Of a stretch of DNA of 64,000 nt, positions 1 through 15,287 are shown in pieces (the first letter of the stretch is position 1; the number at the start of each line of letters is the position of its first letter). The DNA is taken from positions 128,001 through 192,000 of the forward strand of contig CAVRGP010000011.1 in NCBI GenBank assembly GCA_963720755.1, in the 5' to 3' direction. The notes beneath the pieces were generated by a model. That model did no database searches. It was not told the origin of the DNA and worked only from the letters and a program-made list of their open reading frames with translations. Position numbers and translations under genes: made by a program. Origin of the DNA: an uncultured Chloroflexia bacterium. Lineage in GTDB: Bacteria; Chloroflexota; Limnocylindria; Limnocylindrales; CSP1-4.

Positions 1-1481
1 GAGGAGGCGACCGCGGACGCCAGGGATAGTGCGACCGTTTCGCTGACCATCCTGGTTCGCCGCCACCAGGCGAATGCGCAGACGGCCATTGCCGCAGCGA
101 GGCCCATCGCCAGGTCGAGCGGCGGCTGGAGTTCGATCGTCGCGAAGGGCAAATTCGCGGCCAGTTCGACGATGGTCACGAGGATCCTCAGGATCACCCA
201 CCCGGGTGCCGCCGCGATCGCACCGACGATGGCCGGAGCGCCGCCGAGCACCGTGAGACCGCCACCGAGCGCCACGAGCCCGACCGCCATTGCCGGAGCC
301 ACGAGCGGGACGACGACGAGGTTCACGATCGGCGACAGGACGGCCAGGCGCCCGAACGAGACGAGGATGATCGGGAGCGTCGCCGCCTGGGCCGCCAAGG
401 ACACCCCGAGGTTCTCGGTGAGCCAGGCCGGCAGCCGGCCACCCCCGGCACATTCCAGCCAGGTGGTGATCGGGGATGCCCAGAGGATGAGTCCCGCGGT
501 GGCCAGGGAGGAGAGCTGGAAGCCGGCATCGCCGATCAGACCCGGATCGACCAGCAGGAGCAGGAAGACGGCCCAACCCAGCGCGGCAGCCGCTCGCCCC
601 GCCCGGCCGGACTCGCGGGCCAGGAGGACGACGCCCGCCATCAGTCCGGCCCGGACGACCGACGCCGATCCGCCGGCGAACGCGACATAGGCGACGATCG
701 CTGCGAGGGTCACCACGGAGCGGCGCCTACGTCCGAGCCGGCCGGTCATTGCCGCGACCGCCGCCGCGACGATCGCGATGTTCCAGCCGGAGATGGCCAC
801 GACGTGACTGACGCCGGCCGTGGTGAACGCGGCCGCGAGGTCTCGATCCACCCGGTCGCGCAGGCCGATGAGGATCCCGGCCGCGAGACCGGCCTCCGGT
901 TCCGGGAGGACTTCGGCGAGGGCCTCGGCCGCGTCGCGCCGGAGACTCTCCAGCCGGCGGCCCGGGTCAATCTCGCTCGGGAGGATCGTCAAGGTCCGCG
1001 ACGACAAGGTGCCGACGGCCCCGATCCGGAGGAGATACGCGCCGTACGGCGAATCCGGTCTGGCCCGGATCGATCCATCGACCGAGACGTGGTCGCCGGG
1101 AACGACGATCGGATAGCGGGGCAGCGTCGCCGCCACGCCGAACACCCGTCCGTCATCGACCCGGGCGACCAGGGTCGCGGTCTGGTTCCCGTCCCGGGGT
1201 GAGCCGGTCGATTCGACGACGAACTGCCACGGACCGTCGCCGGCGGGTGGGTCGTCGAGCGAGGCGGCGCTGACCGGGAGCAGCGTCACCCGGAGGACGA
1301 TGAGGCCGGCCCCGACGACGATCGGGAGGAGGCTCCGAGCTTGGCGGGGACGGAGCTCGCGGATGACCAGCACGACTGCAAGGCAGAGCGCTGCCCCGGC
1401 CCCAAGTTGATTCGGGGCGATCTGCCCGGCGAGGAGTGCTGCGAGGACGGCACCGAGCGACAGGCGGCCGCTGCGACCCAC
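1..1481 (-). CDS. comEC: ComEC/Rec2 competence DNA-uptake channel (runs off left edge)
   Basis: Minus-strand translation gives AFTTAGVSHVVAISGWNIAIV (~770-830), the ComEC hallmark, in frame with a GTG at 1481 just downstream of comEA. Not in the ORF track because there is no stop in the window. Confidence 0.9.
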   Translation of the reverse strand, partial: MGRSGRLSLGAVLAALLAGQIAPNQLGAGAALCLAVVLVIRELRPRQARSLLPIVVGAGLIVLRVTLLPVSAASLDDPPAGDGPWQFVVESTGSPRDGNQTATLVARVDDGRVFGVAATLPRYPIVVPGDHVSVDGSIRARPDSPYGAYLLRIGAVGTLSSRTLTILPSEIDPGRRLESLRRDAAEALAEVLPEPEAGLAAGILIGLRDRVDRDLAAAFTTAGVSHVVAISGWNIAIVAAAVAAMTGRLGRRRRSVVTLAAIVAYVAFAGGSASVVRAGLMAGVVLLARESGRAGRAAAALGWAVFLLLLVDPGLIGDAGFQLSSLATAGLILWASPITTWLECAGGGRLPAWLTENLGVSLAAQAATLPIILVSFGRLAVLSPIVNLVVVPLVAPAMAVGLVALGGGLTVLGGAPAIVGAIAAAPGWVILRILVTIVELAANLPFATIELQPPLDLAMGLAAAMAVCAFAWWRRTRMVSETVALSLASAVAS

Positions 1482-1482
1482 G

Positions 1483-2211
1483 TCAGCGGACCGCCACGAG
1501 GTCCTTCAAACCGTCGAATGTCTTCTGCCCGACCAGCCCGCGGGTCCGGAGGTCGTCGACGGCGATGAACGACTGCGCGTTCCGCGAGGCCAGGATCTTC
1601 GCGGCTGTCACGGGGCCGATCCCGGGGAGCGTGTCGAGCTCCGCCTCGGTCGCATGATTCAGGTCGATCGGCCCAGTCGTCGACGGATCGCCGGCGGTGC
1701 CGGGCCCGCTTGCCGGGAGGGTGCCGGTATCCGGCGGATCGTCGCGGGATGGCACCCGGATCTGGTCGCCATCGTGGAGCGGTGCGGCCAGATTGAGTTG
1801 GCGCGTCGCCCGATCCGTATCGACCCTCGGACCGTATCCTCCGGCGGCCGCCACCAGGTCACCGATCCGCGCGTCCGTCGCGACGCGGTAGACGCCCGGG
1901 TGGTCCACCGCACCGACGATCTCGACGATCAAGACCGAGACATCGCCGGCCGCGGGCAACCCACCTGCCACAGGTCCGGATCCAGACGTCACCGGTCCCA
2001 GCGGCGCCGCGCCATCCACGACCACGTCGCCCGAGGTGCCGGCACCGAGCGCCACCACGATGGCCGCGATCGCCAGGATCGCGGCCAACCCGGCCGTCAG
2101 GACGGCCGAGCGAGGAACCGCGCCGATCCCGCCCGGGGCCGGGGCCGGTTCGGATGCCTTGGGTCCGGGCGCATCCTCAAGGACGCGCCACGGTGTCGCG
2201 CTCGGGTCCAC
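1483..2211 (-). CDS. comEA: ComEA DNA receptor (TM + SLBB + HhH)
   Basis: VEIVGAVDHPGVY...LNLAAPLHDGDQIRVP and IDLNHATEAELDTLPGIGPVTAAKI motifs; immediately upstream of comEC. Confidence 0.93.
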   Translation of the reverse strand: MDPSATPWRVLEDAPGPKASEPAPAPGGIGAVPRSAVLTAGLAAILAIAAIVVALGAGTSGDVVVDGAAPLGPVTSGSGPVAGGLPAAGDVSVLIVEIVGAVDHPGVYRVATDARIGDLVAAAGGYGPRVDTDRATRQLNLAAPLHDGDQIRVPSRDDPPDTGTLPASGPGTAGDPSTTGPIDLNHATEAELDTLPGIGPVTAAKILASRNAQSFIAVDDLRTRGLVGQKTFDGLKDLVAVR

Positions 2212-2265
2212 GCATCGATCTCCCTCGGCGGGATGGTCGTGCGATCAAGTGTCCGAATCGATGGA

Positions 2266-2354
2266 CGTCTCGCCGCGATGGGGGCACTTCCGACGCGGCG
2301 AGACGTCTGACCTGACTCTAGCCAGTGCCCGTTAGCTGCGACTTATCGACACCG
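2266..2354. repeat. Island-border element copy 1: palindromic hairpin + GTTAGCTGCGACTTA box
   Basis: The 42 bp CGTCTCGCCGCG-ATGGGGGCACTTCCGA-CGCGGCGAGACGTC is identical to 6953-6994; 23 bp later GTTAGCTGCGACTTATCGACACCG. Confidence 0.9.
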
Positions 2355-2443
2355 ACCGACGCGACTTGGGAGCCGTCGACAGGGGTATCATCGCGACCGC
2401 GCGCACCTCCCTAATTGCCCGGAGATATCGAGAGGATCTCAGT

Positions 2444-2487
2444 AATGCCGGTGGCTACCCGATTGAATGCCGGTGGCTACCCGATTG
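2444..2487. repeat. 22 bp tandem duplication x2
   Basis: AATGCCGGTGGCTACCCGATTG at 2444-2465 and 2466-2487, spanning the stop codon of the 2477-2803 ORF. Confidence 0.9.
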
Positions 2488-2803
2488 GCTGCCACACCAC
2501 CCAAAACAAAACGACGGCCACATATGTGGCAAGCACCCCGACGCCGCACAAGACGACGCCAACAACGACTCCTTCGATCACCTCGCTAGGCGTCGCGGCT
2601 CGAATTCGTATCAACCCGATGCTTAGGGCGACCGTCACTAGCACGCCAAGCCATAGGGCCGGGGACGTGAGCCACGGGATGTAGTCCCAGGCCCCGGCAA
2701 CGATCGCGACGATTCCGCCTATAGCCACCGGCAGGCTGAGCAGAATGTCCCGTGCGATCCTACGTGAGGTAGGTTTGTCGACGCCGCGGTCGATGGTCGT
2801 CAT
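2477..2803 (-). CDS. Small hypothetical membrane protein (3 TM)
   Basis: 108 aa with three hydrophobic stretches; last gene of a tightly packed minus-strand operon. Confidence 0.7.
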   Translation of the reverse strand: MTTIDRGVDKPTSRRIARDILLSLPVAIGGIVAIVAGAWDYIPWLTSPALWLGVLVTVALSIGLIRIRAATPSEVIEGVVVGVVLCGVGVLATYVAVVLFWVVWQPIG

Positions 2804-2818
2804 CGCAACCCCAAATAC

Positions 2819-3214
2819 TCATGACGGTGGGTCTCCGGTCTCCTGACCTCGCACGGTCCCGTCGCATGCTGGGAGAGGTTCGGCAGGCGGCTTGCTGTCA
2901 GAGTAGATAGCACCCTCGTTGGTCACCATTTCATAGGCCGGATCGACGCGAGACGGATCGGAACCCCCACCTCCGTGGCGGGCAATGAACCGACCTAAAT
3001 CGTCAACGATGTCGTAACGATTGAGGACGAATTTGGTCGCCTCGGCGTGTCCACACGCAGGCACGTCCAAATTCTCATTTCTACCAACAACCGCTATTGC
3101 GGTTTCCGTTCGATTCCAAACTTCCAGTTTGCCGACATAGGTCGGTTCGATCGAGCATGCCCCAACGACGCCCAGCAGCACACTAAGGACGCCGAGCGCC
3201 ATTGAGGGTTTCAT
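2819..3214 (-). CDS. Hypothetical lipoprotein
   Basis: MKPSMALGVLSVLLGVVGAC lipobox; ATG overlaps the upstream stop (ATGA). Confidence 0.7.
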   Translation of the reverse strand: MKPSMALGVLSVLLGVVGACSIEPTYVGKLEVWNRTETAIAVVGRNENLDVPACGHAEATKFVLNRYDIVDDLGRFIARHGGGGSDPSRVDPAYEMVTNEGAIYSDSKPPAEPLPACDGTVRGQETGDPPS

Positions 3215-3588
3215 GGCCGTGTGTCCATGCCACTTAGGTCGACATCGGGATAGATATTCGGGTATCCATCCTGGTACACGCAGACAACGTGTTGAAATGT
3301 TGCTCCCGTTCGAAACCAAGTGTAGTCGCCGCGAAAGACGACTACCAATGCTGGCTGATCGTTCTGGAGCTCAGGGGCACCAAATGCGGCTGGAAAATGT
3401 CTCCAGAAGTTCTTAGCTCGATCCAAGTCGAACGTAGCCAGGACCTGGTTCCCGCGCGTGCTGGCGCCGCATTCGGCAACGCGCGGGTCATCCGATAGAT
3501 CCGTCCCAGCCTGGGATACGCCAATCGCTACGAAGAGACCAGCACAAGCGAGGCCCACTGCGGCACTCGCGATTCCTTTGGCTTTCAT
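3211..3588 (-). CDS. Hypothetical secreted protein
   Basis: Signal-peptide-like MKAKGIASAAVGLACAGLFVAIGVSQA; start overlaps the upstream stop (TGATG). Confidence 0.7.
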   Translation of the reverse strand: MKAKGIASAAVGLACAGLFVAIGVSQAGTDLSDDPRVAECGASTRGNQVLATFDLDRAKNFWRHFPAAFGAPELQNDQPALVVVFRGDYTWFRTGATFQHVVCVYQDGYPNIYPDVDLSGMDTRP

Positions 3589-4298
3589 CACTGCACCGTC
3601 CACGTTTCCACGGAATCACCGGTTCCATTGCACTTGTATTTCGACGCGTTGCCGCCATCGTTGATGTTGCAGCTGTTGTTGCTCACGGACGTCCAGCCTC
3701 CGCCGTTGGAGTTCTGGTACTGCATGTGGCGGATCAGATAGTGAGAGCCTGCGTTTCCGCCATTGGAATCCCCGTCGTTCCAGGTTTCCGTGAACCACGT
3801 AGCACTCGCGGGTGTCCAAGAACAGCTCGTGTACGAATACGGGATGGAGATCTTGGCATTCCCCTTCCAGGAAAGAATCCAGTTCGCGCCGACCCTGGAC
3901 ACTTTGGCATCACCGGATGATCCATCCCACGTGGAAATCTCCTGCGGAAACGGAAGGTGTGCCAAACATGTGACGCCGTTGGCCTCCCTGCCCCAGGCGA
4001 AGAGAAGCTTCTTGTTGCCATCGCACTCGCCACTGAGTGGCTTCCGACAGCGCCCGAGACCAATCTGAACGATGCTGCTTGCGCCATTACCACCTTGGAT
4101 ATTCGACCAGGCGAATGAGCCGGCTACGGTGGTCGGAGTCGGATTGGTACAGATCGTGAGCGATCCGGATGCAAACCTGAGGGGACCCGTTGGGCGGGCG
4201 ATGTCAATCGCACGATTTCTCGCAATGGACCCGATCGGAATTCGAACGCTCGCCAGCAGGCGATTCGCCGCTGCAGCTGAATCACGAAGACACTCCAA
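3588..4298 (-). CDS. Putative G1 (eqolisin)-like glutamic peptidase; start uncertain
   Basis: SFAWSNIQGG...SIVQIG and SATWFTETW resemble the G1 motifs SAWVGIDG...LQTG and AEWIVE (catalytic Q/E). Cys-rich, lower GC than the backbone. Confidence 0.45.
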   Translation of the reverse strand: MECLRDSAAAANRLLASVRIPIGSIARNRAIDIARPTGPLRFASGSLTICTNPTPTTVAGSFAWSNIQGGNGASSIVQIGLGRCRKPLSGECDGNKKLLFAWGREANGVTCLAHLPFPQEISTWDGSSGDAKVSRVGANWILSWKGNAKISIPYSYTSCSWTPASATWFTETWNDGDSNGGNAGSHYLIRHMQYQNSNGGGWTSVSNNSCNINDGGNASKYKCNGTGDSVETWTVQ

Positions 4299-4343
4299 GA
4301 CCTAAGGGCTTTGATCTCAACCCAACCGAGGAGCATCGGACGC

Positions 4344-4493
4344 TAAGCGAATGGCTCACCTTCCTCTCGACGTTTCCGGCGATGGACGGCTGAAACACTA
4401 GGCTGGCGCACTTATCTGTCACTTACCTCCGCCGGATCGTTGGTGAGTGTGCAGCGATCGCCGGACTCACCGACGCGTGGGTTATGCGGCGAG
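4344..4493. other. Intergenic structured element: TAAG...TTA-N8-TTA followed by a hairpin
   Basis: TTATCTGTCACTTA at 4412-4425; 11 bp stem CGTTGGTGAGT/ACTCACCGACG with a 16 nt loop at 4438-4475. Confidence 0.45.
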
Positions 4494-4669
4494 TGGTTGC
4501 GGTGTCCGTTGGCAGCCCTTGATCCTTGTGGCGGACATGCCCCGGGGCCCGCCCAGGGTCGCGTTTCGGACGTAGCGCGGAGGATGGCGCTGATCTACGA
4601 GCCGAGCGCCACAGCGGCTGCCGTACGACCGTCTTCCGCATGGAGAATCGATCCTAGCCAGGGGCAACT

Positions 4670-5683
4670 GTGAAGATCACCGGCCTTATGTCGATCGCGT
4701 TGCTGGTAGGCGCATGCGCGGCACCGACGTTGACAACAGAGCCATCGTCACCCGCGATTGCGCCCTCAGCTTCTCCGATGCCCACGGAGTCGCCACAAGC
4801 CTCGGAGCCAGCATCGGCGAACCCGGAGCTCGCGTCCGGGTCGCCGAGTCCGTTGACGTCGAGCCCGGCCCCAAGCCCGACAATGGATGCCTCTCCATCA
4901 CCGACATCGTCACCCACCGTCACGCCGACGCCGTCGTCCGACGCCCGTTTCGTGGAGATTGCACTCGCGTACGCGTCGCGCGCCGGGTTCGAGCTGGCCG
5001 CCGATTCGCGGCCGAGGGTCCGCGAAGAGCAACCCTCCTATGAGCGGGTGACGCTGCACCGGGTGTCGCTGCGTCTCGCTCGCGCCGACGGCGCCAAACT
5101 CTGGGTCTACCTCGACGACGACGGCGCGATCAAGGTCGTCGAGGACGGCCTCTATGACCGACCGACGGGTGCGACCGCGTCGCGGACGGAGGTCCTCCGA
5201 GCGGCCCGTCGCGATCTGCGACAGATCGGCGTCGACCCGGCGAGCGGCACGCTGCACGTCGCCTTGCACGGCGCTGGTCACTGGTACCTGACGTTCGATC
5301 GTGAGCTCGCTGGCTACCCCGTGGCCAACGCACCGATGGCGTGGTGGATCACCGGCGACAAGGCGTATCTCGAACTGCGGTCCGATGCCTCGCTCGTCAA
5401 CCTGTACGCGATCCGGCCCAGGCACCTGCCGGTCCCAGCGATCCTCGACCAGGACACGCTCACCAGTCGGCTGGCCAAGGTAGCCAAGGTCTCGCGCGCC
5501 ACGCTCGCGACCTACGAACCGGTCCTGCTTTGGGCCCTCGTGCCATCAGGAACCCTCACGCCGACGGAGCTCGCGCTGACTCTCAACTACTGCGCCACGA
5601 TGCGGACCGACTACAGCTGGCAGGTCTGGTGCATCGACGCGGGTACTGGTGAGCGGACCATCGCCGGTGGTGCGGCCGACTAA
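4670..5683 (+). CDS. Hypothetical lipoprotein with Ser/Pro/Thr linker
   Basis: MKITGLMSIALLVGAC lipobox, S/P/T-rich linker, then a globular domain. Confidence 0.8.
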   Translation: MKITGLMSIALLVGACAAPTLTTEPSSPAIAPSASPMPTESPQASEPASANPELASGSPSPLTSSPAPSPTMDASPSPTSSPTVTPTPSSDARFVEIALAYASRAGFELAADSRPRVREEQPSYERVTLHRVSLRLARADGAKLWVYLDDDGAIKVVEDGLYDRPTGATASRTEVLRAARRDLRQIGVDPASGTLHVALHGAGHWYLTFDRELAGYPVANAPMAWWITGDKAYLELRSDASLVNLYAIRPRHLPVPAILDQDTLTSRLAKVAKVSRATLATYEPVLLWALVPSGTLTPTELALTLNYCATMRTDYSWQVWCIDAGTGERTIAGGAAD

Positions 5684-5794
5684 CCGCAACGTTTGCCGGG
5701 GAGCACCCTGGGTGGTCGACCTGAGATCGTCCCTCCGGGCGCGGAGCGCGACCCGATGACCCGAGGGTAGGAACCTCTGCTTACGCGGCGCTTA
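5681..5794. other. 114 bp imperfect palindrome (attC-like) bounded by the TAA stops of two convergent genes
   Basis: Left arm TAACCGCAACGTTTGCCGGGGAGCACCCTGGGTGGTCG versus reverse complement of right arm TAAGCGCCGCGTAAGCAGAGGTTCCTACCCTCGGGTCATCG; right end is TTA-N8-TTA (5781-5794). Confidence 0.55.
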
Positions 5795-6673
5795 CTTGTG
5801 CCGCTCCTCGCCCGAGGTGAGGCGCACGATCAACGCGCCGACGACATGCACGATGAGCCAGGCGTCTTCGCGCTTGGCCTCCGTCGCGTGGTGGGCATCG
5901 CCCATCTCACTTCGGTCAGCGGCCACCCACTGCATCGTCTTCTCGATGGCATCAACGAGCGGGGTGTCGTGGGCGCCCAATAGGCCCTTCTTCTTTGCCG
6001 ATCGCGTGAGATCGCCGAGTTGGTTGCCGTCGCATCCGAGCGCTTCGAGAACCTCTTGAAGGGTGGAGCCTGCGTCCGTGATCGCGTCGGCGGCCTTGCC
6101 TTGCGCGAGTTCATCGAGCGCCTCGCGGTACTGCTTGTCCGCCTTGGCAAACTCCGGACGGTGGAGGAGGCGAAGCGCCGGTTCGATCGCCGCGACGTGC
6201 AACTCCTTGGAGTGGATCTCGACCATGCGCCCGTCGATCACCTCCCACCCGACACGCTCCTGCGCGAGGATGTCGTTGATCTCCTTCGACAGCGCCTCTG
6301 CCCAGCGGAACGGATACGAGCGGTATGACTGCTGGGCTTCGGTGTTGTCACCTGCCTCGACCGCCCCAAGGAGCGCCTCGATGACGGTCGGAAACATGTC
6401 GTCCGGACATTGCTGGAAGTAACGGAAGAAGTCGTCAGCGGGCTTCGTGGCGCCGGGAACCAGCGCGAACTTTCCCTCCTGCTCAACGATCCGCCGCCGC
6501 GCCTCCGCGAAGATGGCGGTCGGCGTGACGTACATGGCGCCACCGACGATCCGCTGGTAGACGTGCAGGATGCGGGTACGGGCACGCTCCGAGAACGCCG
6601 GGGTCCAGAGCGACTCGCCAGCAGCCTCGCGTTCGGCGAACTCTTGAAGTCGTTTCCTGAGGGAGTGCAGCAC
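5792..6673 (-). CDS. Abortive-infection (AbiJ-N / Abi_C HEPN-like) defence protein
   Basis: C-terminal DAITDAGSTLQEVL...ADRSEMGDAHH...EDAWLIVHVVGALIVRL fits the Abi_C pattern (R-x-H); N-terminal INDILAQERVGWEV is AbiJ-NTD-like. Confidence 0.6.
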   Translation of the reverse strand: MLHSLRKRLQEFAEREAAGESLWTPAFSERARTRILHVYQRIVGGAMYVTPTAIFAEARRRIVEQEGKFALVPGATKPADDFFRYFQQCPDDMFPTVIEALLGAVEAGDNTEAQQSYRSYPFRWAEALSKEINDILAQERVGWEVIDGRMVEIHSKELHVAAIEPALRLLHRPEFAKADKQYREALDELAQGKAADAITDAGSTLQEVLEALGCDGNQLGDLTRSAKKKGLLGAHDTPLVDAIEKTMQWVAADRSEMGDAHHATEAKREDAWLIVHVVGALIVRLTSGEERHK

Positions 6674-6952
6674 CCAATGAGTCTACCGATCCGTCATCAC
6701 CATCAGCGTTGTCGCTGACCCGTCCAGCGCGGTCGCTGCGCGTCGCTGACGATCGATCCGACCACAGACAGGGGAACGTCAGAGCAACCGCCTTGTGACC
6801 GATCGTCTGGGTCGATGAAACGGAGAGGACGCGGGCAGGAGGCAACCCGCCGTCAGCGTCGTCTGGTTGTCGCCGGTCTTCACCAGCGCCAGTTCCTTCC
6901 ACAGGGGGTAACGCTGGCCCGTAAACGCGCGAGCGCGCGGACCGAGATCCAC

Positions 6953-7042
6953 CGTCTCGCCGCGATGGGGGCACTTCCGACGCGGCGAGACGTCACCGGA
7001 CGACTATGGAGGGAGCCTGTTAGCTGCGACTTAACGACGCCG
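6953..7042. repeat. Island-border element copy 2
   Basis: Same 42 bp hairpin as 2266-2307; 24 bp later GTTAGCTGCGACTTAACGACGCCG. Confidence 0.9.
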
Positions 7043-7068
7043 GACGTCGATGACGTGAACCTGCCCCG

Positions 7069-7875
7069 TCAGGGTGCCTGATCGATCGCATTCGCCGCGT
7101 CGAACCTGACCGTCTTGAGGACGGCTTCGAACAGGGCGCGGTCGACGTGGCCATCCATGATGAAGATGTAGCCGCGGCCGCCGGTCGCGACGGCTGCGTC
7201 GAAGATCACGCCTCCGGTCGCGACCGTCCCACCCTCAGCCGACAGGCCATCCTCATCGACATTGCCGGTCTGGTCGCCGATAGCGATCACGCGACCGCAC
7301 GCCGTCTTCGTCGTCCCCGACCGGCAGTACGGTGCCAGCCAGTCTGACGGGCTCTGGCCGCTGAGGGGTTGTGAGGCGATCGCCAGTGTGACCTCGGCAT
7401 TGCCGATCCTGTCGAGGCCCGGGTCGTCGGCCAGGATGTCGATGCCCGTCGTCCACGGCGCGGTCGCGGGGGTGAACGTCCAGTCGGACGGCACGGTCAC
7501 GCTGTAGCCGTGCCTCGATGACGTGATGACCTGGGTCAGCGCAGGGATCGGGATCGTCGTCGCCGCCGCAGATGGCGCGGTCGTCGGAGCGACAGATGCC
7601 GACGGTGTTGCCGCGGCCCCGCCAACGGCCGGCTGGCCGGGTCTGCCGAAGAAGAGCAGGGTGCCGCCGAACACCAGCACGCCGATGACGGCCGCTGTGG
7701 CGATGCGCGCGGGAGTGGTCATGGTGGGCAACCTCCACGGCACGCCAAAGGTGCGCCGTTGTCGAGTCAGGTGGACCTGGTCGACGGCCGCGTCGATGAC
7801 CCGATCCGATAGCTCCTCGGGGCCGTCGGCCAGCCAGGCCCGTACGATCCGGTCGAGATCTCGATCCGTGGTCAT
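7069..7875 (-). CDS. Putative anti-sigma factor (single TM, extracellular domain)
   Basis: MTTDRDLDRIVRAWLADGPEELSDRV N-terminus, a TM helix and a S/T/A linker; ATGA-coupled to the ECF sigma. Confidence 0.75.
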   Translation of the reverse strand: MTTDRDLDRIVRAWLADGPEELSDRVIDAAVDQVHLTRQRRTFGVPWRLPTMTTPARIATAAVIGVLVFGGTLLFFGRPGQPAVGGAAATPSASVAPTTAPSAAATTIPIPALTQVITSSRHGYSVTVPSDWTFTPATAPWTTGIDILADDPGLDRIGNAEVTLAIASQPLSGQSPSDWLAPYCRSGTTKTACGRVIAIGDQTGNVDEDGLSAEGGTVATGGVIFDAAVATGGRGYIFIMDGHVDRALFEAVLKTVRFDAANAIDQAP

Positions 7876-8423
7876 GCCAGACGCTCCATCGTGGTCACGA
7901 TCCGGGCATCGGCGTCGAGCGCCGCCCGGAGCGTTTTGGTGGTGTAGTGCATGCGAGACTTGACCGTGCCCAGGGGAACGCCGAGCTCGTCGGCGATCTC
8001 GGCCAGGGTCAGGCCCACGTAGTGGTGCAGCACAAAGATCGCGCTCTGCTCCGGCGACAGGCGTCGGAACGCCCGCTCGAGGCGGTCGCGATCGATGACG
8101 GTCGCGATGTCGTCGCGCCCTTCCGGCCCCTCGGTCGGCAGGATGCGGACATTGGCCGCCCAGGCACGACGTCGCCTCGCCTCCGCGTAGCACGCGTGGA
8201 CCAGGATGCGCCGCAGCCAGGCCTCGAACCGGTCGTCATCGCGCAGCATCGGCAGCTCACGCCAGGCCGTGACGAGGGTCTGCTGGACGGCGTCCTCGGC
8301 TCGGTCGACGTCGCGCAGGATCCTGTACGCGATCGCCATCAGCCGGTCGCCGACCGCGCGTGCGAGGTCGGCGAACGCTTCCTCATCCCCTCGTCGGGCC
8401 AGGTCCACGAGTGCTCGCTGCAC
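7872..8423 (-). CDS. ECF RNA polymerase sigma factor
   Basis: Region 2 AEDAVQQTLVTAWR...FEAWLRRI; region 4 EIADELGVPLGTVKSRMHY. Confidence 0.93.
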   Translation of the reverse strand: MQRALVDLARRGDEEAFADLARAVGDRLMAIAYRILRDVDRAEDAVQQTLVTAWRELPMLRDDDRFEAWLRRILVHACYAEARRRRAWAANVRILPTEGPEGRDDIATVIDRDRLERAFRRLSPEQSAIFVLHHYVGLTLAEIADELGVPLGTVKSRMHYTTKTLRAALDADARIVTTMERLA

Positions 8424-8642
8424 CCGGCCCTCCCTTCTACAAGCGTCCGACCTGGACGCATCAACCCTAATGAGTCATCGCGCCCGCCGATGGTTCGATC
8501 TTCGCTCGCTGCGGTCGTCGAACGAGAACCGGGCATCCGACCAGCGGCCCCGACTGGTTTCCGCGCCGTTGACCGTGAGATGGTGCAACTGCGAGCGCGC
8601 TCGGGATATCTTCAGGTCCACAGGGTCCAAAAGGGGAATGAA

Positions 8643-9263
8643 ATGCGCTCGTCGACTGCACGCCTCGCCGCCGCGATCACCGTCGCCATCTTCGTCGTGT
8701 TCGGATGCGCGTCAGCCAGGAACCCGACCCCGGTCGTGACGTCGACCCTGCCAACGACCCCGACCCCGACCCCGCCGCCGCCCACCAGCGCGCCCCCGGC
8801 TCCCGTCGCGACACCGACCCCAACGCCTGCGACGACCGTCATCCCGACCGCGTCGGCGGACGCCACGCCCCGCGTGGTCGAGCTGACTGCGATCCTCGCT
8901 GTTGCCGAGGCCGATCGGTTCGAGACCTTCGGCGGAGAGGCCATCCGCCTCGAACACGTCTGGTCTCCAACGATGGATCTCGGTCTTGGGGGTACGTGCG
9001 GTCCCAGCTCCGTGCCATGGCTCGAATGTCTCGGTGTCCCGGACTGGTTGATCCAACCCGCCTCGGACGACGCCGGCTACGACGGCGCGCGACTCGGCAT
9101 CCTGTACGAGCCGGGTCTGGGCGAGCGGCTCGCCCTGGGCGAGGGCCCCGTGGACGTGATCGGCCACTTCGGCGACCCCGCCTCGAAGCAATGCCGTCCG
9201 AAAGATCGTGCTGCGTGTCGTGATCGGTTCGTCGTCACCAGCATCGAGAAGGCCGGGTCCTAG
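8643..9263 (+). CDS. Hypothetical lipoprotein with Pro/Thr linker
   Basis: MRSSTARLAAAITVAIFVVFGC lipobox; C-terminal GHFGDPASKQC...CRDRFVVTSI. Confidence 0.75.
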   Translation: MRSSTARLAAAITVAIFVVFGCASARNPTPVVTSTLPTTPTPTPPPPTSAPPAPVATPTPTPATTVIPTASADATPRVVELTAILAVAEADRFETFGGEAIRLEHVWSPTMDLGLGGTCGPSSVPWLECLGVPDWLIQPASDDAGYDGARLGILYEPGLGERLALGEGPVDVIGHFGDPASKQCRPKDRAACRDRFVVTSIEKAGS

Positions 9264-9279
9264 CCAGGTATCTGTCGCC

Positions 9280-9717
9280 TCAAGCGCGGCGGTAGTCGAT
9301 CTCCCAGGCCACGATCCAGGTGGCCCGGTCATCGGCCGAGCGCTGCCATTGCCAGCGGAACGAGTCCTCGGTGACATCGAGCCAGACCATCCGCTGGACG
9401 ATCCTGGCTCCGTCGATCCTGGCCTCGCGTTCGAAGGCGATGCGTCCATCGACGTCGACGCCGACGAGATCGAGATAGGCGCCGGTCGAATCGACCCAGG
9501 TTTGGCGCCAGCGGCCGTCCCTGGCGTCCAGTACAGACAGGCTGCGTCCCTTGAGTGTGTCGTCGTCGTCGCGGCCATCGAACGTTTCCTCGATGACACG
9601 CTCGTCCAGGATCCGACGGATCGTGTTCGTACCGTGACCGCCGCCGGCCCAGGTCACGATCCATCGCCCGAGCCAGAAATCGAGCGCCGTCGCGCCGAGC
9701 GGATCGACGGGGGTCAT
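9280..9717 (-). CDS. DUF1579-like beta-barrel protein
   Basis: LDFWLGRW...GRWRQTWVDS...WQRSADD...WEIDYRR pattern. Confidence 0.65.
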   Translation of the reverse strand: MTPVDPLGATALDFWLGRWIVTWAGGGHGTNTIRRILDERVIEETFDGRDDDDTLKGRSLSVLDARDGRWRQTWVDSTGAYLDLVGVDVDGRIAFEREARIDGARIVQRMVWLDVTEDSFRWQWQRSADDRATWIVAWEIDYRRA

Positions 9718-9796
9718 GCGATCGAGTGGGGGCTGGCGCCATCGTGCCACGATACACGCACTCGCCCTGCGCGAACCTCCTGGCCATGTGACGATC

Positions 9797-10258
9797 ATGG
9801 CCATGACCTTCGTCCCTGACGACTTCACACCGCCCGACGGGCTCGATCACGAGCGGTTCCGGTTGCGTCCGCTCGGCCCGGAACACAACGGTTCGGACTA
9901 CGCGGCGTGGACCTCATCCATCGACCACATCCTGGCGACGCCAGGGTTCGAAGGGGCATCCTGGCCGCGGCCGATGACCCTCGCGGAGAACCTCGGCGAC
10001 CTCGAGCGCCATGCGGCCGATTTCGAGGCGCGCACGGGCTTCACCTACACGGTTCTGGCGACCTCGGGGTCAACGGTCATCGGCTGTGTATACATCTACC
10101 CGAGTGAGGCGGTCGGGATCGACGCTCGGGTTCGATCATGGGTACGGGCGGCCGATGCCGATCTGGATACCGCCCTGTATCTGGCGGTGAAGGAATGGCT
10201 GCGGATCGACTGGCCATTCGAGCGGATCGATTACGCGGAACGACCCTCAGGCGGGTAG
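9797..10258 (+). CDS. GNAT-like N-acetyltransferase
   Basis: FRLRPLGPEHNGSDYAAW...FTYTVL...IGCVYIYP conserved pattern. Confidence 0.7.
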   Translation: MAMTFVPDDFTPPDGLDHERFRLRPLGPEHNGSDYAAWTSSIDHILATPGFEGASWPRPMTLAENLGDLERHAADFEARTGFTYTVLATSGSTVIGCVYIYPSEAVGIDARVRSWVRAADADLDTALYLAVKEWLRIDWPFERIDYAERPSGG

Positions 10259-10658
10259 CCGCTCCCAGTCGACCCAGGCGATGCCGTCCCAGAAGCGATG
10301 CCACGATCGATCCGTCCCGGCCGGGTGCCCAGACATCGATCCGGTCCGCGCTCCATGAAGACGCGGAGGGCGAGCCGGAGGCGTCCAGGACGCCGCCGAG
10401 CGACTCCCACGGATGCCAGGCGCTACCGTCCCAGTATCGGTTCCAGAGTTCGCCGTCGGCGAAGACGGCGAAGACTTGCAGCCGATCGGGTGCCCAGGCT
10501 GTCGCGGCCGGGGGCGAGGCCAGGGTCCCGCCGAGAGATTCCGTCTCGGCCCAACGACCACCGTCGAAGGCCCGATGCCGCAGACCATCGTCGTCGCCGG
10601 ACCAGAACAGGTCGATCCGGTCCGGACCCCACGAGACTGCCGACACGCCATTGGTCAC
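10247..10658 (-). pseudogene. Trp-rich lectin-like beta-propeller repeat protein, frameshifted near 10310
   Basis: Repeats SAVSWGPDRIDLF / AATAWAPDRLQVF / SASSWSADRIDVW; the C-terminus WHRFWDGIAWVDWERL is in another frame. Confidence 0.6.
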
Positions 10659-10683
10659 GAGGCTTCCTCCATATGGAGGAAGC

Positions 10684-10917
10684 CTACTCGGACGCCGCGA
10701 GGGAGTGTCGGAGGTCGTCCGCGACCCCGCAGTCAAGTCGGTCGACGGCGGCCGCAGTGCCGCGGGTCATCTTGGCGAGAGCGACGGCAGTCGGCCGGCG
10801 GAAGCGCGATGGCCGGCTCGGCCGGGAGGCGCGCAGGTCGGCGGCCAGGCGGGACCGCTCGGCCTCGCGCTGCCGGTCGCGCGCGACTTCGAATGCGTAG
10901 AACGTCCAGGGATGCAT
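10684..10917 (-). CDS. Small hypothetical protein
   Basis: 77 aa, AAGGAA RBS, follows the 38 aa TM peptide. Confidence 0.6.
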   Translation of the reverse strand: MHPWTFYAFEVARDRQREAERSRLAADLRASRPSRPSRFRRPTAVALAKMTRGTAAAVDRLDCGVADDLRHSLAASE

Positions 10918-10937
10918 GTTGTTTCCGTTCCTTTGGG

Positions 10938-11054
10938 TCAGCGGCGGTGGTCGTCGGGAAGTTGGTCGCGCGAGTCGGCGCCAAAGGCGACCGATGCCGC
11001 ATCGAAGGCAGCCAGCGCGATGATCAGGAGGGCGATGATGACGAGGATTCCCAT
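10938..11054 (-). CDS. 38 aa single-TM peptide (MGILVIIALLIIALAAFDAASVAFGADSRDQLPDDHRR)
   Basis: Read by hand; AAAGGAG RBS; below the ORF-track cutoff. Confidence 0.65.
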   Translation of the reverse strand: MGILVIIALLIIALAAFDAASVAFGADSRDQLPDDHRR

Positions 11055-11074
11055 GGCAGTTGCTCCTTTCGAGA

Positions 11075-11157
11075 TAACCTGTTTTTAATGCCTGTTAATG
11101 GTTACTTACGGAATCTACAGGCTTGCCTGTAACCTGTCAAGCGCTCTATAGTGGTTA
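11075..11157. promoter_or_regulatory. Two TAACC-N18/20-GGTTA inverted repeats in an AT-rich divergent promoter
   Basis: TAACC 11075 / GGTTA 11100 and TAACC 11130 / GGTTA 11153; both start TAACCTGT. Confidence 0.55.
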
Positions 11158-11162
11158 GTGTC

Positions 11163-11813
11163 ATGGAACTCAACGCCACCGCCCTGCCCATCACGGACCA
11201 CGCTCACGACGTCGCCCTCGACGACACCTTCGACTTCCTGAACACGGACGACACGGAGAACGGTTTCCCAGTCGATCGGCTGCCGACCCTGGATGACGCC
11301 CTCGCCTGGTTCGTCGCTCGCGGGGTCATCCATCGCGAAGGTGCCGACCGCGTCAGGGCCCAGGATCTCGGGCACCCGGTCGTCACCTCGCGTGACCTCG
11401 CCCGCATCCACCGGGTCCGGACGGCCCTCCGCGAAGTCGCCGTCGCGATCGTCGACCATCGCGCGCCGGCGCCGAGCGCCCTGGACACCGTGAACCGCGC
11501 TCTGCACGAACGCCAGGTGATCGAGTTGGTCCCGTCGCCCGACGGTGTCCACGTCGACCATCGACATGTCGGCGATCCGATCGACGACGCGCTGGCGCGA
11601 CTGGCGGATCCGCTCGTGGCCGAACTCACCTCCGGCCACCCGGACCGGATCAAGGTGTGCGACAGCGATACCTGTGAGTGGATCTTCTATGACGGATCAC
11701 GGACGAGCCGACGGCGCTGGTGCGACATGTCCACCTGCGGCAATCGAGCCAAGGCGGCCAGGCACCGAGCCCGTGAGCGGGCGGCGAACGCCGACCCCGC
11801 TCGTTCGAACTAG
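11163..11813 (+). CDS. ABATE/CGNR zinc-finger regulator
   Basis: DFLNT N-terminal motif; C-terminal CDSDTCEWIFYD...RRWCDMSTCGNRAKA. Confidence 0.92.
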   Translation: MELNATALPITDHAHDVALDDTFDFLNTDDTENGFPVDRLPTLDDALAWFVARGVIHREGADRVRAQDLGHPVVTSRDLARIHRVRTALREVAVAIVDHRAPAPSALDTVNRALHERQVIELVPSPDGVHVDHRHVGDPIDDALARLADPLVAELTSGHPDRIKVCDSDTCEWIFYDGSRTSRRRWCDMSTCGNRAKAARHRARERAANADPARSN

Positions 11814-12727
11814 GCGCGCTCGAGGATCGGCCGGACCTCGGTCGCGAACCGGGTCATCAATTCCTCGTCATGCGGCGATGGGAACCCGGCGATGAGGTGT
11901 CGGTAGCCGATCTCGAGGAACGGCAGGAGTCGCTCGGCGACGTCCTCCGGTGTCCCCACCGGCTGGTCGGTCCACTCGGCCGCGTGCCCGTTGCGCTCGA
12001 ACATCGCCTTCTTGATCCGCTCCGCCTCACCGCGTGAGTCGCGGATGACCACGGCACCCAGGCCCGTCGTCCGTTCGATCTCGGCAGGGTCGCGACCGAC
12101 CGTCTCGCAGTGCTGGAGCAGGATGGCCTCCTTGCGCCGCACATTCTCGATCCCGCCACCCACGTTGTTGGCGTCGGCATAGCGGGCGACGAGCTTGAGC
12201 GTGACCTTCTCGCCGCCGCCGCCGATGAGCAGGGGCAGGCGTTCCTGGATCGGCAGCGGATCGTTGCGAACGGCGGTGGCGGAGTAGCGTGGGCCCGCTC
12301 GCGGTCGGGGCCTCGCCGTGGAGCATGCCCCGCATCACCGGGAGCGCCTCACCGAGCCAACGCAGGCGTTCGGGAAAGCCGCTCCCGAAGTCGAGTCCAT
12401 AGGCGCGGTGTTCTGTTTCGAACCATGCCCCACCGATGCCGAGGATCGCCCGGCCGTTCGAGATGTGGTCGAGGGTCGTGGCCATCTTGGCGGTGAGGGC
12501 AGGTTCACGGAACGTGTTCGCCCCGACCATCAAGCCGATCCGGATCCGCTCGGTCGCCTGGGCCCACGCCGCCAGCGTCAGCCAGCCCTCGTAGATCGGA
12601 CCCTCGTGGCTCCCGACGATCGGGTAGAGGTGGTCCCAGGTCCAGAGCGTGTCGTACCCGAGCCGATCTGCGCGCTCGCCGGCCTCGAGCAGGGCTGCCA
12701 GTTCGTGTACTGGTTCCAGCACAGGGC
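11810..12727 (-). pseudogene. LLM-class (luciferase-like) flavin/F420 oxidoreductase, frameshifted and lacking its own start
   Basis: GYDTLWTWDHLYP, FREPALTAKMATTLDHISNGRAILGIG, IGGGGEK; frame breaks near 12290 and 12700. Confidence 0.8.
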
Positions 12728-13318
12728 CCGACTGACGTCACCAACTGCTGCTCCCGACGGGCGGATGGGGCTGAAACAAGCAGAGCGGTCACTCATCCAC
12801 CGGCCGGTAAGTGGTGACCGTACAGGGACCAGCGGGATAGCTCGCGTGCAACGGTCGCGGTCCGGAAAGCCGAGGCCCAGGACGAGATCGCCGTGTCGCC
12901 CGGGATCGGTCGAGAAGCCACCATCCCGATGTAGCCATCGTCGGTCGGCGTCCAGCCGTCGGATCAGTTCTGCTTGTACCAGCGACACCCCGGCCTCGTC
13001 GCCGTCCGAGACGAGCATTCGGTAGGCGAACGCGTTGGTCGCGCCCTCGATACCCGACCTTGGACGCGCCCGTCGCGACCTCCTGCGCGCCCGGCATCGA
13101 GGTCGCGAAGGCCTCGTCCCCGCGAGGTCGCTCCGAGACGGTCCCGATGGCGCGCAGCCCGCCAGGATAAGCAGCATGATGCCAACCAAGGGCTTCAACG
13201 ACGGTACGTCACCGTTGTGGGGGTCCCAGGTCCAGAGCGTGTCGTACCCGAGCCGATCTGCGCGCTGGCCGGCCTCGAGCAGGTCGGGCCAGGTCGTGTA
13301 CTGGTTCCAGCACAGGGC
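12632..13318. repeat. ~97 bp imperfect direct repeat of the LLM 5' region (12632-12727 and 13222-13318)
   Basis: Both copies encode ALCWNQYT..W...LLEAG.RADRLGYDTLWTWD; only the upstream copy has a start (TTG 13339, GAGGAG RBS). Confidence 0.85.
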
Positions 13319-13437
13319 GCCAAGTCGTGTCGCGGGCAAGTGCGTCTCCTCGGTCGTGGATGGACGGTGGTGACCCAAGGGTAGCCGCCGGCCGGAAACC
13401 TGGCCCGTGCGGGCGGCTCTGCGAACCGCGCCTCGGA

Positions 13438-13783
13438 TCACTCCTGGCTGACGATGTCGACCGAGATCTCGACCGCAGGGATCGCGCCCCGGTTCTCGAG
13501 CCAGTGGGACGTGTTCCGATCCTCGGGCCAGCCCACCCCCGGTCCGTAGTCCGTCGCGACGCCGTCTCGATGGTCGGTGATCGTGCCCTGCAGGACGTAC
13601 ACGGTGCCCGGCCTGCCGATGTGGTCGTGGATCGGTCCGAAGACGCCTCCAGGCTCGATGGTCACCATCCGCATTCGAAGTTGGCGCCGTTCCATGCCCT
13701 CGATCTCGAGGCCCGAGATCGACCGCCGCGAGCAACTTCGTGGCAACACCCTTCGTCTCGGGCGCCACCGGTTCGTCACGCAT
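13438..13783 (-). pseudogene. Cupin-domain protein, frameshift near 13712
   Basis: VTIEPGGVFGPIHDHIGRPGTVYVLQG...HWLENRG cupin motifs; the N-terminus MRDEPVAPETKGV is in another frame. Confidence 0.75.
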
Positions 13784-13969
13784 CGAGATCTCCTCTCTGT
13801 ACGTCCAGGGTCACCGGCCGATCGGCCGTGGCATCAAGGGTATCCAGGGATGCCGATCGAGCCTCGTGGATCGCCTCGGCGGCCCTTGCTGCCAACCGAG
13901 GACCGTCCCGCGGCATCTCCCATGCGACGAGGTCCGATCAACCCACGGACCCGTGCCGCGAGGTGGACG

Positions 13970-15196
13970 ATGAGACCCCGAACGATCCTGAGCACGATGC
14001 TGACCGTCCTTCTGGCGGGATGTGCCGCGTCGACCGCGGATCCATCGACCGCGAATCCATCGACAAGCCCGGCCTCGTCGCCCAGCGCCGCAAGCGCGGC
14101 GGCCCCCGGGCCGAGCGACATGCCGGAACCACGAGCGGTGGACGTCGTCGCCTACCGAGGCGACGCGGCCCGTTCGGGGAACATGCCAGGCCCTGGCCCG
14201 GAAGGCACGCCCCGGATCCTCTGGACGTTCAAGGCCGGTGCCCCGATCGGATCCCAGGCCGTGGTCGTCGGGACCACGGTGTACGTCGTCTCGACCGACG
14301 GCACACTCCACGCGGTCGGCCTCGACACCGGGACCGAACGGTGGAGCGTCGATGTCGGGACCGATGCACTCGGCTCGCCGGAGATCGCCGACGGTCTCCT
14401 GATCGTGGGTGCCGACGACGGAGCCCATGCCTTCGCACTCGACGATGGGGCAGAGCGGTGGGCCGCGACGGAGACCGGCACCGTCCGGGGCGCGCCGGCG
14501 ATCGTCGCTCACACGGCCATCTTCGCCTCGAACGATGGACTCGCGACGGCGCTCGACACCAGGACCGGGACCGTTCTGTGGACCCGGACCCTGGACGCGC
14601 CGGACGACACCTCGGTTGCGGCATCGGACGACCTGGCGATCCTCGGACTCCAAGATGGGACGGTCGTGGCGCTTGCCGTCTCGGATGGGAGCGAGCGCTG
14701 GCGGACCGACACCGGCGACGGCGCTCGTATCGGGACACCGACGATCGCGGGCGGCCGCGTGTACATCGCGACGCTCGACGGGGGCGGACCCGGGACGCGT
14801 CACATCGCCGCCCTCGACCTGGCGACCGGGGGCGTCCTATGGCGCTTCGCCAGCCCCGGCGACAAGCCGTCGTACACACCGGCTGTCGCCGACGGACGGG
14901 CGATCACAGAAGGGGAGGACGGCAGCGTCACCGCCCTAGATGAGGCGAGCGGCGCGGTGCTCTGGCAGGTGAAGCGCGCCGGGCCTCGTGGAGGTCGTCC
15001 CTGCGGTCGCGGGCGGCGTGTTGTACGGGGCGAGCAATGGAGGTGTCGCGTTCGCCCTGGACGCTGCGACCGGGGCGGAGCGCTGGCAGGTCCCGATCAA
15101 GGGCACGCCCTACGGCGTCGCCGTGACCTCCGGTCTGGTCATCGTCGGCACGAATGTCGGCAACACTGTACGCGATCGGCATGGGCGACGCCATGA
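13970..15196 (+). pseudogene. PQQ/BamB-like beta-propeller lipoprotein, frameshifted near 14980 and 15165
   Basis: LLAGC lipobox, YRGDAARSGNMPGPGP, repeated ALDxxTGxxxW blades. Confidence 0.8.
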
Positions 15197-15287
15197 CCAG
15201 GACACAGAATTCCGCCAACCTCGGCCGATCCGTGGAGCATCCAACAAGGGAACCGGCCACACTGGCCGACGAACGGAGACCGAACCG

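Follow-up and report, generated by a model that had tools for sequence, protein, structure and literature searches.

An accessory island bracketed by two copies of the predicted comEA promoter and leader at a gene-content hotspot of uncultured Limnocylindria

We analysed a 64,000-nucleotide (nt) stretch, hereafter the window (G000:C11:128001-192000), of the genome of an uncultured bacterium of the Limnocylindria, Chloroflexota (G000; 15 contigs, 3.01 Mb, 93.6% complete). Other genomes of the genus are denoted Gnnn and individual loci Lnnn; all genomes are metagenome-assembled genomes (MAGs). At the left end of the window lie comEC (3-1481, minus strand; Pfam Competence PF03772, E=3.9e-50), which extends past the window start and is syntenic in the loci of all 20 relatives compared, and comEA (1483-2211, minus strand; Pfam HHH_3, SLBB and HHH). 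Next to comEA we found a block of about 4.65 kb of accessory DNA, the island (2308-6952), enclosed by two copies of one sequence element. Specifically, an exact 42-nt repeat occurs at 2266-2307 (L copy) and at 6953-6994 (R copy). The repeat folds into a hairpin (2264-2307 in the L copy) with 14 bp in its stem, and it is accompanied by the 15-mer GTTAGCTGCGACTTA, located 23 nt past the hairpin in the L copy (2331-2345) and 24 nt past it in the R copy (7019-7033). The spacers between hairpin and 15-mer are identical at only about half of their positions, and a weaker similarity extends for about 25 nt beyond GTTAGCTGCGACTTA; in total the two copies are similar over about 97-108 nt, including the exact blocks of 42 and 15 nt. 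A preliminary description of this DNA had reported the identical 42-bp hairpins with a TTA-N8-TTA box 23-24 bp further on, which is borne out by these coordinates, and had suggested that they may be attC-like sites of an undescribed or divergent integron-like cassette system.

Searches of other genomes of the genus recovered the element in 31 of 36 and later in 104 of 130 genomes, nearly always as a single copy, and in only two of 24 genomes of a small-genome sister family, both with weak partial matches (E ~0.01). An exact 28-nt core of the hairpin is present at 67 loci in a species-representative genome collection, all of them on MAGs recorded as Chloroflexota and mostly as Limnocylindria, with two titled Saccharimonadales. 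At 65 of these 67 loci comEA adjoins the core, and the remaining two are contig ends. A metagenome collection yielded the core at 68 further loci, 17 of which are too short for assessing the neighbouring gene; comEA adjoins in 49 of the 51 loci with at least 400 nt on that side. This is the distribution of a single-copy sequence that belongs to comEA, predicted here to be its promoter and leader, and not that of mobile attC-like sites.

Read on the comEA strand, the element consists of GATAAGTCGCAGCTAAG with two TAAG repeats 11 bp apart, 9-10 nt, a TANNNT hexamer, 6-8 nt and the hairpin; about 25 nt, a conserved CCCGCC...GGAGG segment and the comEA start codon follow downstream. The -10 hexamer geometry is conserved in an alignment of 83 sequences, with mostly TAGAGT, TAAGGT or TACAGT at a fixed distance from the box. 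GATAAGTCGCAGCTAAG covers the -35 region, no -35 hexamer is recognisable, and the arrangement is that of a predicted sigma-70-type promoter with an upstream box. The predicted L-copy promoter (2315-2347, minus strand; 74.8 bits against the genus profile) comprises GATAAGTCGCAGCTAAC (2331-2347), 10 nt and TAGAGT (2315-2320), and now stands ahead of comEA. The R copy (6953-7033, minus strand) comprises the box at 7019-7033, CATAGT at 7003-7008 and the hairpin minus its last 2 nt (6953-6994), and it faces the island.

The leader hairpin, GACGUCUCGCC-GCGUCGGAAGUGCCCCCAACGU-GGCGAGACGUC, is 44 nt long and its loop UCGGAAGUGCCCCCAA is almost invariant across the genus. Compensatory changes from U-A to C-G were found for two stem pairs in 10 and 16 of the 83 aligned sequences, with U.G intermediates on the comEA strand only. 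The L hairpin (2264-2307, minus strand), which contains the putative crossover interval 2266-2307 discussed below, is followed by the 3' part of the leader (2212-2263, minus strand), where the conserved segment is part of a second predicted hairpin that pairs the ribosome-binding site and the comEA start codon. The 108-nt leader at 2205-2312 (minus strand) has a predicted folding energy of -52 kcal/mol (z=-3.45; none of 200 shuffles was equally stable), and a scan of window 1-12000 against Rfam 15 (E<=1) gave no match at the element. On these sequence comparisons, hairpin and box are the predicted promoter and structured 5' leader of comEA-comEC, and 2205-2312 is a candidate cis-regulatory leader of comEA.

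TTA-N8-TTA boxes occur in the window at 2332, 4412, 5781, 7020 and 11095 on the plus strand and at 11075 on the minus strand. These six compare with 0.17 expected, and none of 100 shuffles reached six; over both strands of the whole genome 15 were observed versus about 0.8 expected. The island interior holds two, whereas first-order Markov resampling predicts 0.07 (two were reached in 7 of 5000 resamples), and 11 is the sole spacing from 3 to 40 nt that gives two TTA there. The preliminary description had rightly judged the four boxes of the island, all on one strand, to be no product of chance, and the count stands well above the shuffled background. Its further statement that each box lies beside a hairpin holds for the outer pair. 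The hairpin beside the 5781 box belongs to another family, which we call hairpin2, and sits between convergent gene ends, and at 4412 there is only a degenerate trace. The boxes at 11095 and 11075 are unlike the comEA box; they lie in an AT-rich divergent intergenic region (10950-11150, GC 0.57) between genes 10077-10736 (minus strand) and 11151-11813 (plus strand).

A GC-rich perfect hairpin in intergenic DNA could also be a dispersed repeat of the repetitive extragenic palindrome (REP) type, an intrinsic terminator or a repeat by chance. However, the L and R copies are the only two complete copies in the entire genome and the element is therefore not a dispersed REP, an eventuality that had been raised together with the original proposal. 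Furthermore, no T-run follows the hairpin, the boxes far exceed the shuffled controls, and in relatives the hairpin is located upstream of comEA. Copy number, comEA adjacency and box counts thus refute this explanation, and its probability is negligible.

The pattern TAAG-N7-TAAG-N8-11-TANNNT gave 172 matches in 105 of 131 genomes of the genus, versus 13 for the reversed control. Most of these matches are the comEA copy, and many genomes carry extra copies with different spacer sequences. A Pfam scan of eleven open reading frames (ORFs) downstream of motifs of this class identified three BrnT toxins, one HNH endonuclease, one EcoRI-type methylase, one HTH_3 protein and one weak ABM match, with four ORFs remaining without match. 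The start codons of the three BrnT genes lie 3-6 nt past the TANNNT hexamer, an arrangement of leaderless type, and in G074, G012 and G061 TAAG motifs are found 6-12 kb from integrase genes of the G123 type (described below) on the same contig. The box thus appears to be a promoter motif, TAAG-N7-TAAG-N9/10-TANNNT, that is common to comEA and to accessory and mobile genes, and not part of an attC-like site as first supposed. Since promoters of this predicted class also stand upstream of accessory genes, the two internal boxes of the island are explained. In Pho-box-type sites of class II activators, a pair of direct repeats with an 11-bp period takes the place of the -35 hexamer and lies some 10 bp ahead of the -10 hexamer. 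The geometry of the comEA box is similar, with two TAAG 11 bp apart at 9-10 nt before TANNNT and no recognisable -35 hexamer. However, the GATAAGTCGCAGCTAAG-type box is not known to be related in sequence to any other box, and it would serve comEA and accessory or mobile genes and not a phosphate regulon.

The junctions of the island were resolved by comparison with the close relative G147, in which the counterparts of window 55-2354 and 6953-12727, with identities of 85% and 91%, lie next to each other, share one copy of the element and enclose no island. In a three-way alignment the G147 copy corresponds to the L flank on the comEA side and to the R copy from the hairpin rightwards, where it is 100% identical to R over 88 nt (91% for the homology further right). 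Segment 2308-6952 is therefore an insertion or deletion, with the exchange located within the 42 shared nt. The same junction was found in soil run X4, in which a single short contig (126 nt, depth ~4, from one study) joins 2265 to 6953; other contigs of that study carry the island. Among contigs from four DNA runs of one study none spans the island and none contains the back-joining joint of a circular form, although contigs could hardly show one. The outer copies had been proposed to be a recombination junction, and both empty sites agree with this, placing the break inside the 42-nt repeat.

The L spacer and the part upstream of it are unlike G147, with a best identity of 0.88 to G104 versus 0.80 to R. 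Since the L spacer differs from G147 and R is identical to it, the present promoter of comEA would have come with the inserted DNA, and the old chromosomal promoter is, by this alignment, the R copy, which now faces the island. The GC content of the island is 0.53-0.66, compared with 0.69-0.74 in the left flank; by position, values of 0.53-0.62 were obtained for 2251-4500 and of 0.63-0.71 for 4500-6900. Of the features of site-specific genomic islands we thus found direct repeats that duplicate the target, an empty site and foreign composition; an adjacent integrase is missing. No tRNA or tmRNA gene is present at the site as a target. ARAGORN called a tRNA-Asn at 8868-8938, in a Pro/Thr-rich stretch with coding appearance and no Rfam tRNA match, which is probably a false call. 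Taken together, we consider it very likely that an insertion, joined within the hairpin, is enclosed by duplicate copies of the native comEA promoter-leader, and that the structure is not an integron.

A different explanation would be that the boxes are only promoters of one regulon or class, and that the outer duplication is incidental, caused by slippage at the hairpin or by a tandem duplication that was later filled. The TAAG class is indeed widespread upstream of unrelated accessory genes, and partial tandem duplications inside the element are present in G005 and L136. However, the island-free allele is cleanly bounded by the repeat and the inserted DNA is of foreign composition. Moreover, the L spacer is about 50% diverged from R, which itself matches G147 at every position; L is therefore of outside origin and did not arise by copying in place. 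We regard incidental duplication as very improbable.

The island contains three modules of cargo. Module A1 consists of four co-oriented genes (2477-2803, 2819-3214, 3211-3603 and 3588-4298, minus strand) with signal-peptide or membrane features and a GC content of 0.53-0.62. None of them had a family match in Pfam, NCBIfam or PADLOC, and the former designation as a peptidase-like operon is without support from these databases. About 100 nt upstream of gene 3588-4298 lies an internal degenerate third copy of the element (4368-4485, minus strand) with TAAGTGACAGATAAG-N10-TAGTGT (4395-4425), an exact match to the TAAG-class pattern. In a genome-wide nhmmer search it is the best hit (E=0.097) after the two full copies and their palindromic reverse-strand matches, and its upstream flank of 60 nt (4422-4485) has homologues beside native comEA elements (84% identity in G031, 77% in G131). 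Module A2 is a lipoprotein-like gene (4670-5683, plus strand, antisense to comEA; GC at third codon positions 0.80 on the plus strand) without a family match in protein-family scans, and with 69% nucleotide identity to G095:C274. Its strand confirms the earlier remark that the modules are not co-oriented.

The end of this gene is followed by a relic promoter-leader of a second type (5718-5794, minus strand), composed of TAAGCGCCGCGTAAG-N10-TACCCT (5764-5794) and the GC-rich hairpin2 (5718-5760). It faces into the 3' end of 4670-5683, and the stop codon of gene 5792-6673 coincides with its outer TTA. It occurs once in this genome and is 81% identical to sequences in G001:C10 and G082:C35 that have the same geometry of box and hairpin2; in G082 these precede an HNH gene, and in G079 a hairpin2 leader precedes a gene for an EcoRI-type methylase. 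Module A3 carries the cargo gene 5792-6673 (minus strand), with weak similarity to AbiJ_NTD4 (31.6 bits, cut-off 34) and to the STM4504 family (NF046078, 45 bits, cut-off 150) and a PADLOC hit to PDC-S32 (E=5e-7). Of its designation as an Abi gene, the weak AbiJ_NTD4 similarity stands, at a score under the cut-off. None of the island genes was found in the loci of the 20 relatives. Two of the internal modules start with putative promoters, or relics of promoters, of the TAAG-box class.

Between module A3 and the R copy, region 6692-6919 (minus strand) contains relics of an integrative element of a type that is intact in two other genomes, with a size of about 10.8 kb (L086, G123:C2, 5305-16273; L087, G143:C6, 6436-16864). 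The gene order of this G123-type element is tyrosine integrase, small ORFs, Toprim/AAA_25 primase-helicase, a 243-amino acid (aa) protein, a Terminase_6N-like protein and cargo. No other virion genes were seen in G123 and G143, and the family appears satellite-like. Both elements occupy the 3' end of an AlaX-like gene, and direct repeats of 166-190 nt (117+70 nt or 166 nt) that mimic the target lie on either side of them. In the window, 6848-6919 encodes 24 aa of the Terminase_6N-like protein and 6692-6793 corresponds to the upstream region of the cargo gene of the element (tblastn: 83% over 24 aa, E=1.2e-7, and 59% over 32 aa, E=1.7e-5; blastn against G123:C2: 90% over 62 nt and 79% over 89 nt). 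The two matching pieces sit 2.1 kb apart in G123 and G143; compared with the intact element, stretches of about 2.1 kb and about 5 kb are missing, and the terminase fragment ends up 34 nt from R. Because order and orientation of the relics match the intact elements, the missing integrase side would adjoin R. The internal degenerate copy, the relics and the modules together indicate that at least three pieces have accreted to form the island, leaving relic junctions.

To the right of the R copy, the rest of the variable region (7069-10076, with gene 7069-8193 and its neighbours) is shared with G147 and with none of the 20 other relatives' loci, and it ends at the conserved gene 10077-10736 (minus strand). 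The 20 relatives have a common backbone of comEC, comEA, the element, a variable stretch, and an orthologue of 10077-10736 with the genes following it. Between relatives the variable stretch differs in length, from 358 nt to over 14.7 kb, and has no common cargo; its products include surface proteins, subtilases, serpins, MsrB, GNAT, DUF4386, cyclases and a TIR-STAND protein. Unrelated cargo has thus been gained as well as lost at this spot, in line with the expectation that cargo at these sites varies between strains. The box, which had been thought to punctuate gene junctions, does not do so in these relatives: 19 of the 20 loci contain one element box and one contains no exact match, two hold one further, unrelated TTA-N8-TTA, and in none do boxes lie at gene junctions.

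Structures with two copies of the element were also found elsewhere. A second copy borders an insert of 7 kb in G005, of 3.5 kb with one subtilase gene in G017, of 4.4 kb in G127 and of 0.85-1.9 kb in the metagenome loci L193, L206, L217, L224, L228 and L248, and the inserts of these nine loci lack mutual protein similarity. The six metagenome loci and G017 contain a single-gene insert, which in all seven is on the strand opposite comEA; nine candidate ORFs of G005, some of them overlapping, are likewise antisense to comEA. The distal copies retain the box, the -10 hexamer, the 5' arm and the loop. In eight of the eleven loci with a distal copy (G000, the nine others and L200), this copy ends after GAGAC, GAGACG or GAGAT, about 2-3 nt short of the 3' end of the hairpin (G000, L200, L224, L228, L248, G127, G017 and, in degenerate form, L217). 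The other ends are after the loop in L206, mid-loop in G005 and atypical in L193. The same 5-nt insertion, ACAA[AG], is present in four distal copies whose lineages differ in their spacers, where it precedes a variant 3' arm. On the left, the repeat unit begins at a variable distance of 0-38 nt upstream of the box. It is possible that the two-copy loci do not represent independent events. G104, G117, G021 and G072, each with two or three element matches, were rejected as further islands, since in them the whole comEA locus is present on two contigs. The partial tandem duplications within the element (L053 of G005, ~5356-5470 in comEA-locus orientation, and L136, 1983-2161) consist of a second unit of GAGACGTC, spacer and -10, and look like scars of earlier exchanges.

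A fixed capture site beside a promoter, unrelated cargo that varies between strains, a hairpin at the module borders and short TTA boxes are features that this locus has in common with integrons. However, no integron integrase was found in the genome at its 93.6% completeness (TIGR02249 scores of 109.8, 108.3 and 27.8 versus a cut-off of 265). The comEA repeat has a perfect 14-bp stem, a conserved loop and a whole predicted promoter, whereas attC sites are imperfect and variable palindromes. The island modules have TAAG-box promoters or relics of their own and differ in orientation, whereas integron cassettes are co-oriented and mostly promoterless. The suggested integron-like system therefore gives way to a resident, predicted core-operon promoter next to modules with putative promoters of their own. 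What survives of that suggestion is that these sequences mark recombination junctions at a gene-capture hotspot.

A linked tyrosine recombinase, a search for which had been suggested with the cassette proposal, was found neither at the site nor in the relatives' or two-copy loci, and the 14 long ORFs scanned in window 1-11.6 kb include no recombinase. The three tyrosine recombinases of G000 are two Xer-like proteins and one phage-type integrase 700 kb away. The latter belongs to a classical 10-kb integrative element in tRNA-Cys (G000:C11:831917-841875, locus L159), which is bounded by a 45-nt repeat of the tRNA 3' half and encodes, besides the integrase, HTH_17 and AAA_25 proteins and TPR, DUF4236 and GNAT cargo. 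Near both ends of this element there are TTAGCATCG[CA]GTTAGCATC repeats, and an internal sequence, GATAACCCGCAGCTAAGCGCC, resembles the comEA box; the idea of an arm-type integrase site for the comEA box is a matter of resemblance only.

A revised form of the cassette idea assumes small circular cassettes with a promoter-hairpin, some with a bulged 3' arm (ACAAA-GGAGAGAC), which a recombinase acting in trans, e.g. a Xer-like enzyme, would insert at a fixed point of the hairpin, so building a strain-specific array. The unrelated single-gene inserts between two copies in seven loci would fit this, as would their uniform antisense orientation together with the ORFs of G005, the fixed junction point with a motif conserved right after it in four lineages, the lack of a recombinase in cis, and a conservation of hairpin loop and stem beyond the apparent needs of a leader. 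On the other hand, none of the three tyrosine recombinases of the genome exceeds 109.8 for TIGR02249, most genomes contain a single copy and an ordinary, repeat-free variable region, and the chromosomal hairpin, with its perfect stem in a repeat that includes the whole promoter, is unlike attC or attI. The two-copy loci are possibly not independent, selection could explain the orientation bias, and a circular form was not seen in contigs that could hardly have shown one. We judge this revised cassette system to be quite improbable. Improbable, too, is the broader notion that the comEA leader hairpin is the docking site of an undescribed gene-capture system, with a trans recombinase, circular cassettes and one fixed phosphodiester near the 3' end. 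If it were true, strains would build and exchange cargo arrays beside the DNA-uptake genes and possibly co-regulated with them.

We propose instead that about 4.65 kb of accessory DNA (2308-6952) entered the comEA leader through one reciprocal, Campbell-type recombination. The partner would have been a circular DNA with its own promoter and hairpin copy, and the crossover would have fallen inside the 42-nt hairpin. R would then be the old chromosomal promoter, turned toward the island, and L the promoter supplied by the island, which would keep comEA expressed. The island probably grew by accretion of at least three modules, its right end being a decayed G123-type element from which the integrase side beside R was deleted. 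The most likely catalyst would be the lost site-specific integrase of this since-decayed element, because its relic lies beside R, the family uses long target mimics and the junction is precise. The comparisons above document that the junction is of reciprocal type and falls in the hairpin, that a promoter-leader copy came in with the DNA, that the same point recurs at other loci, and that decay and accretion took place. For the complete scenario, i.e. the duplication around an insertion combined with island accretion and a lost integrase as catalyst, we see an even chance.

Several observations weigh against this scenario. Neither integrase nor excisionase nor transposase was found in the island (2308-6952) or among 88 ORFs from the variable regions of 19 of the 20 relatives; these were submitted from 119 ORFs that had passed a coding-composition filter, with frames overlapping comEA or g10 and some overlapping alternative frames omitted. 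Proteins of the G123-type element and of the tRNA-Cys island, compared by tblastn with the loci of G005, G017 and G127, gave one weak stretch only (35% over 48 aa, E=0.007), which is outside the G127 island. Homologues of the G123-type integrase (E<=1e-20) are encoded in 38 of 130 other genomes of the genus, none of them near the comEA element, and no intact element occupies the comEA site in any of the 67 genome and 68 metagenome loci. The element relic at R amounts to 72 nt of coding and about 100 nt of adjacent upstream sequence. Furthermore, L and R share a lineage-specific hairpin variant (GCGAT) despite spacers that are about 50% diverged. With spacers saturated with differences, a common GCGAT is not predicted by a one-step crossover with a foreign attP and suggests gene conversion or repeated recombination. 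In L248 the two copies differ by 4 mismatches in 75 nt, and their nearest neighbours are native copies of close relatives; since both copies look like the lineage's own, this locus also fits local duplication or homologous recombination.

It is possible, though in our view rather unlikely, that no dedicated recombinase was involved at all. RecA-type homologous recombination could have used the element copies of about 75-115 nt and the conserved flanking genes as arms, looping cargo out as circles, re-inserting such circles and swapping cargo after uptake from close relatives. No recombinase was found at any two-copy locus, the identical blocks are long enough (42 nt in G000; 76 nt at 95% identity in L248), all distal copies are similar to elements from the same or a sister lineage, and the left edge would vary with the extent of homology. 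The locus itself encodes DNA-uptake proteins. On the comEC/comEA side (window 1-2354, and for 8 kb further left) G000 is about 86% identical to G147, compared with 91-94% to the right of the island (6953-18000), and a recombination tract may have its border at the element. Against homologous recombination stand a right junction that falls precisely on the same 2-3 nt of the hairpin across lineages with unrelated cargo, the ACAA[AG] insertion common to four distal copies of different lineages, and the relic of an integrative element directly beside R. It would account for the spread of the two-copy structure and not for its origin.

Integration by a since-lost integrase would place the island next to elements that insert into tRNA genes, tmRNA genes or gene 3' ends, such as the tRNA-Cys island and the G123 and G143 elements. 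Direct attL/attR repeats, an empty site and foreign composition are points of likeness, as would be Campbell-type insertion and an element-borne copy that keeps the target functional, and the comEA island contains a relic of the G123 type. In contrast to these elements, the mimic at comEA would restore a 5' control region and not a 3' gene end, the integrase is absent, and the L and R copies are mosaic, with two exact blocks around a diverged spacer. Cis-mobilizable elements (CIMEs) of streptococci are decayed elements that keep only their att sites and can accrete at one att site. The comEA island is similar in that cargo lies between attL- and attR-like repeats without recombination genes and in tandem accretion at one site; it differs in host lineage and target, and there is no sign here of a resident mobilising partner element.

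Within the same phylum, Dehalococcoides has tandem islands at ssrA with target repeats at their borders, an integration module being retained in only 16 of 31 (PMC3146451). These islands use the 3' end of an RNA gene as target and have a 20-bp repeat, and their serine recombinase, DsiB, has been identified (PMC3146451). A conserved, structured single-copy target, tandem islands with target repeats, strain-specific cargo and insertion within a stem-loop (the T-loop there, the leader hairpin here) are common to both systems. The comEA target differs in being a predicted promoter and mRNA leader, with a repeat of 75-115 nt and apparent replacement of the promoter of the downstream operon, and in that no recombinase was found at any copy of the comEA element. 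Our literature search found no paper on this element or on competence loci of Limnocylindria.

Some further repeats of the window were noted outside the island. A 70-nt repeat with 94% identity, its copies 590 nt apart, lies inside genes for F420-dependent LLM-class oxidoreductases (12624-13283), and comparison with G147 points to an apparent tandem duplication of about 590 bp in the window. Arrays of tandem repeats are located at 30287-30609 (24-nt unit), 30739-30908 (17 nt), 37471-37870 (18 nt) and 38002-38166 (33 nt), the last with four near-identical copies.

Genomic islands are usually sought at tRNA and tmRNA genes. The feature described here is a variant of site-specific island insertion and accretion in which the recurrent target is a predicted promoter with its mRNA leader, and in which the incoming DNA supplies a promoter mimic as replacement. 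It illustrates how an element can separate a core operon from its control region and yet leave the operon active, provided that comEA is expressed from the new promoter as we infer. The site is a genus-wide hotspot of gene content in abundant, uncultured soil Chloroflexota. As by-products, the analysis provides a candidate comEA leader RNA and the putative promoter class TAAG-N7-TAAG-N9/10-TANNNT for a lineage without genetics. Because the hotspot is directly beside the DNA-uptake genes, a link between the control of competence and the acquisition of genes becomes testable in these bacteria.

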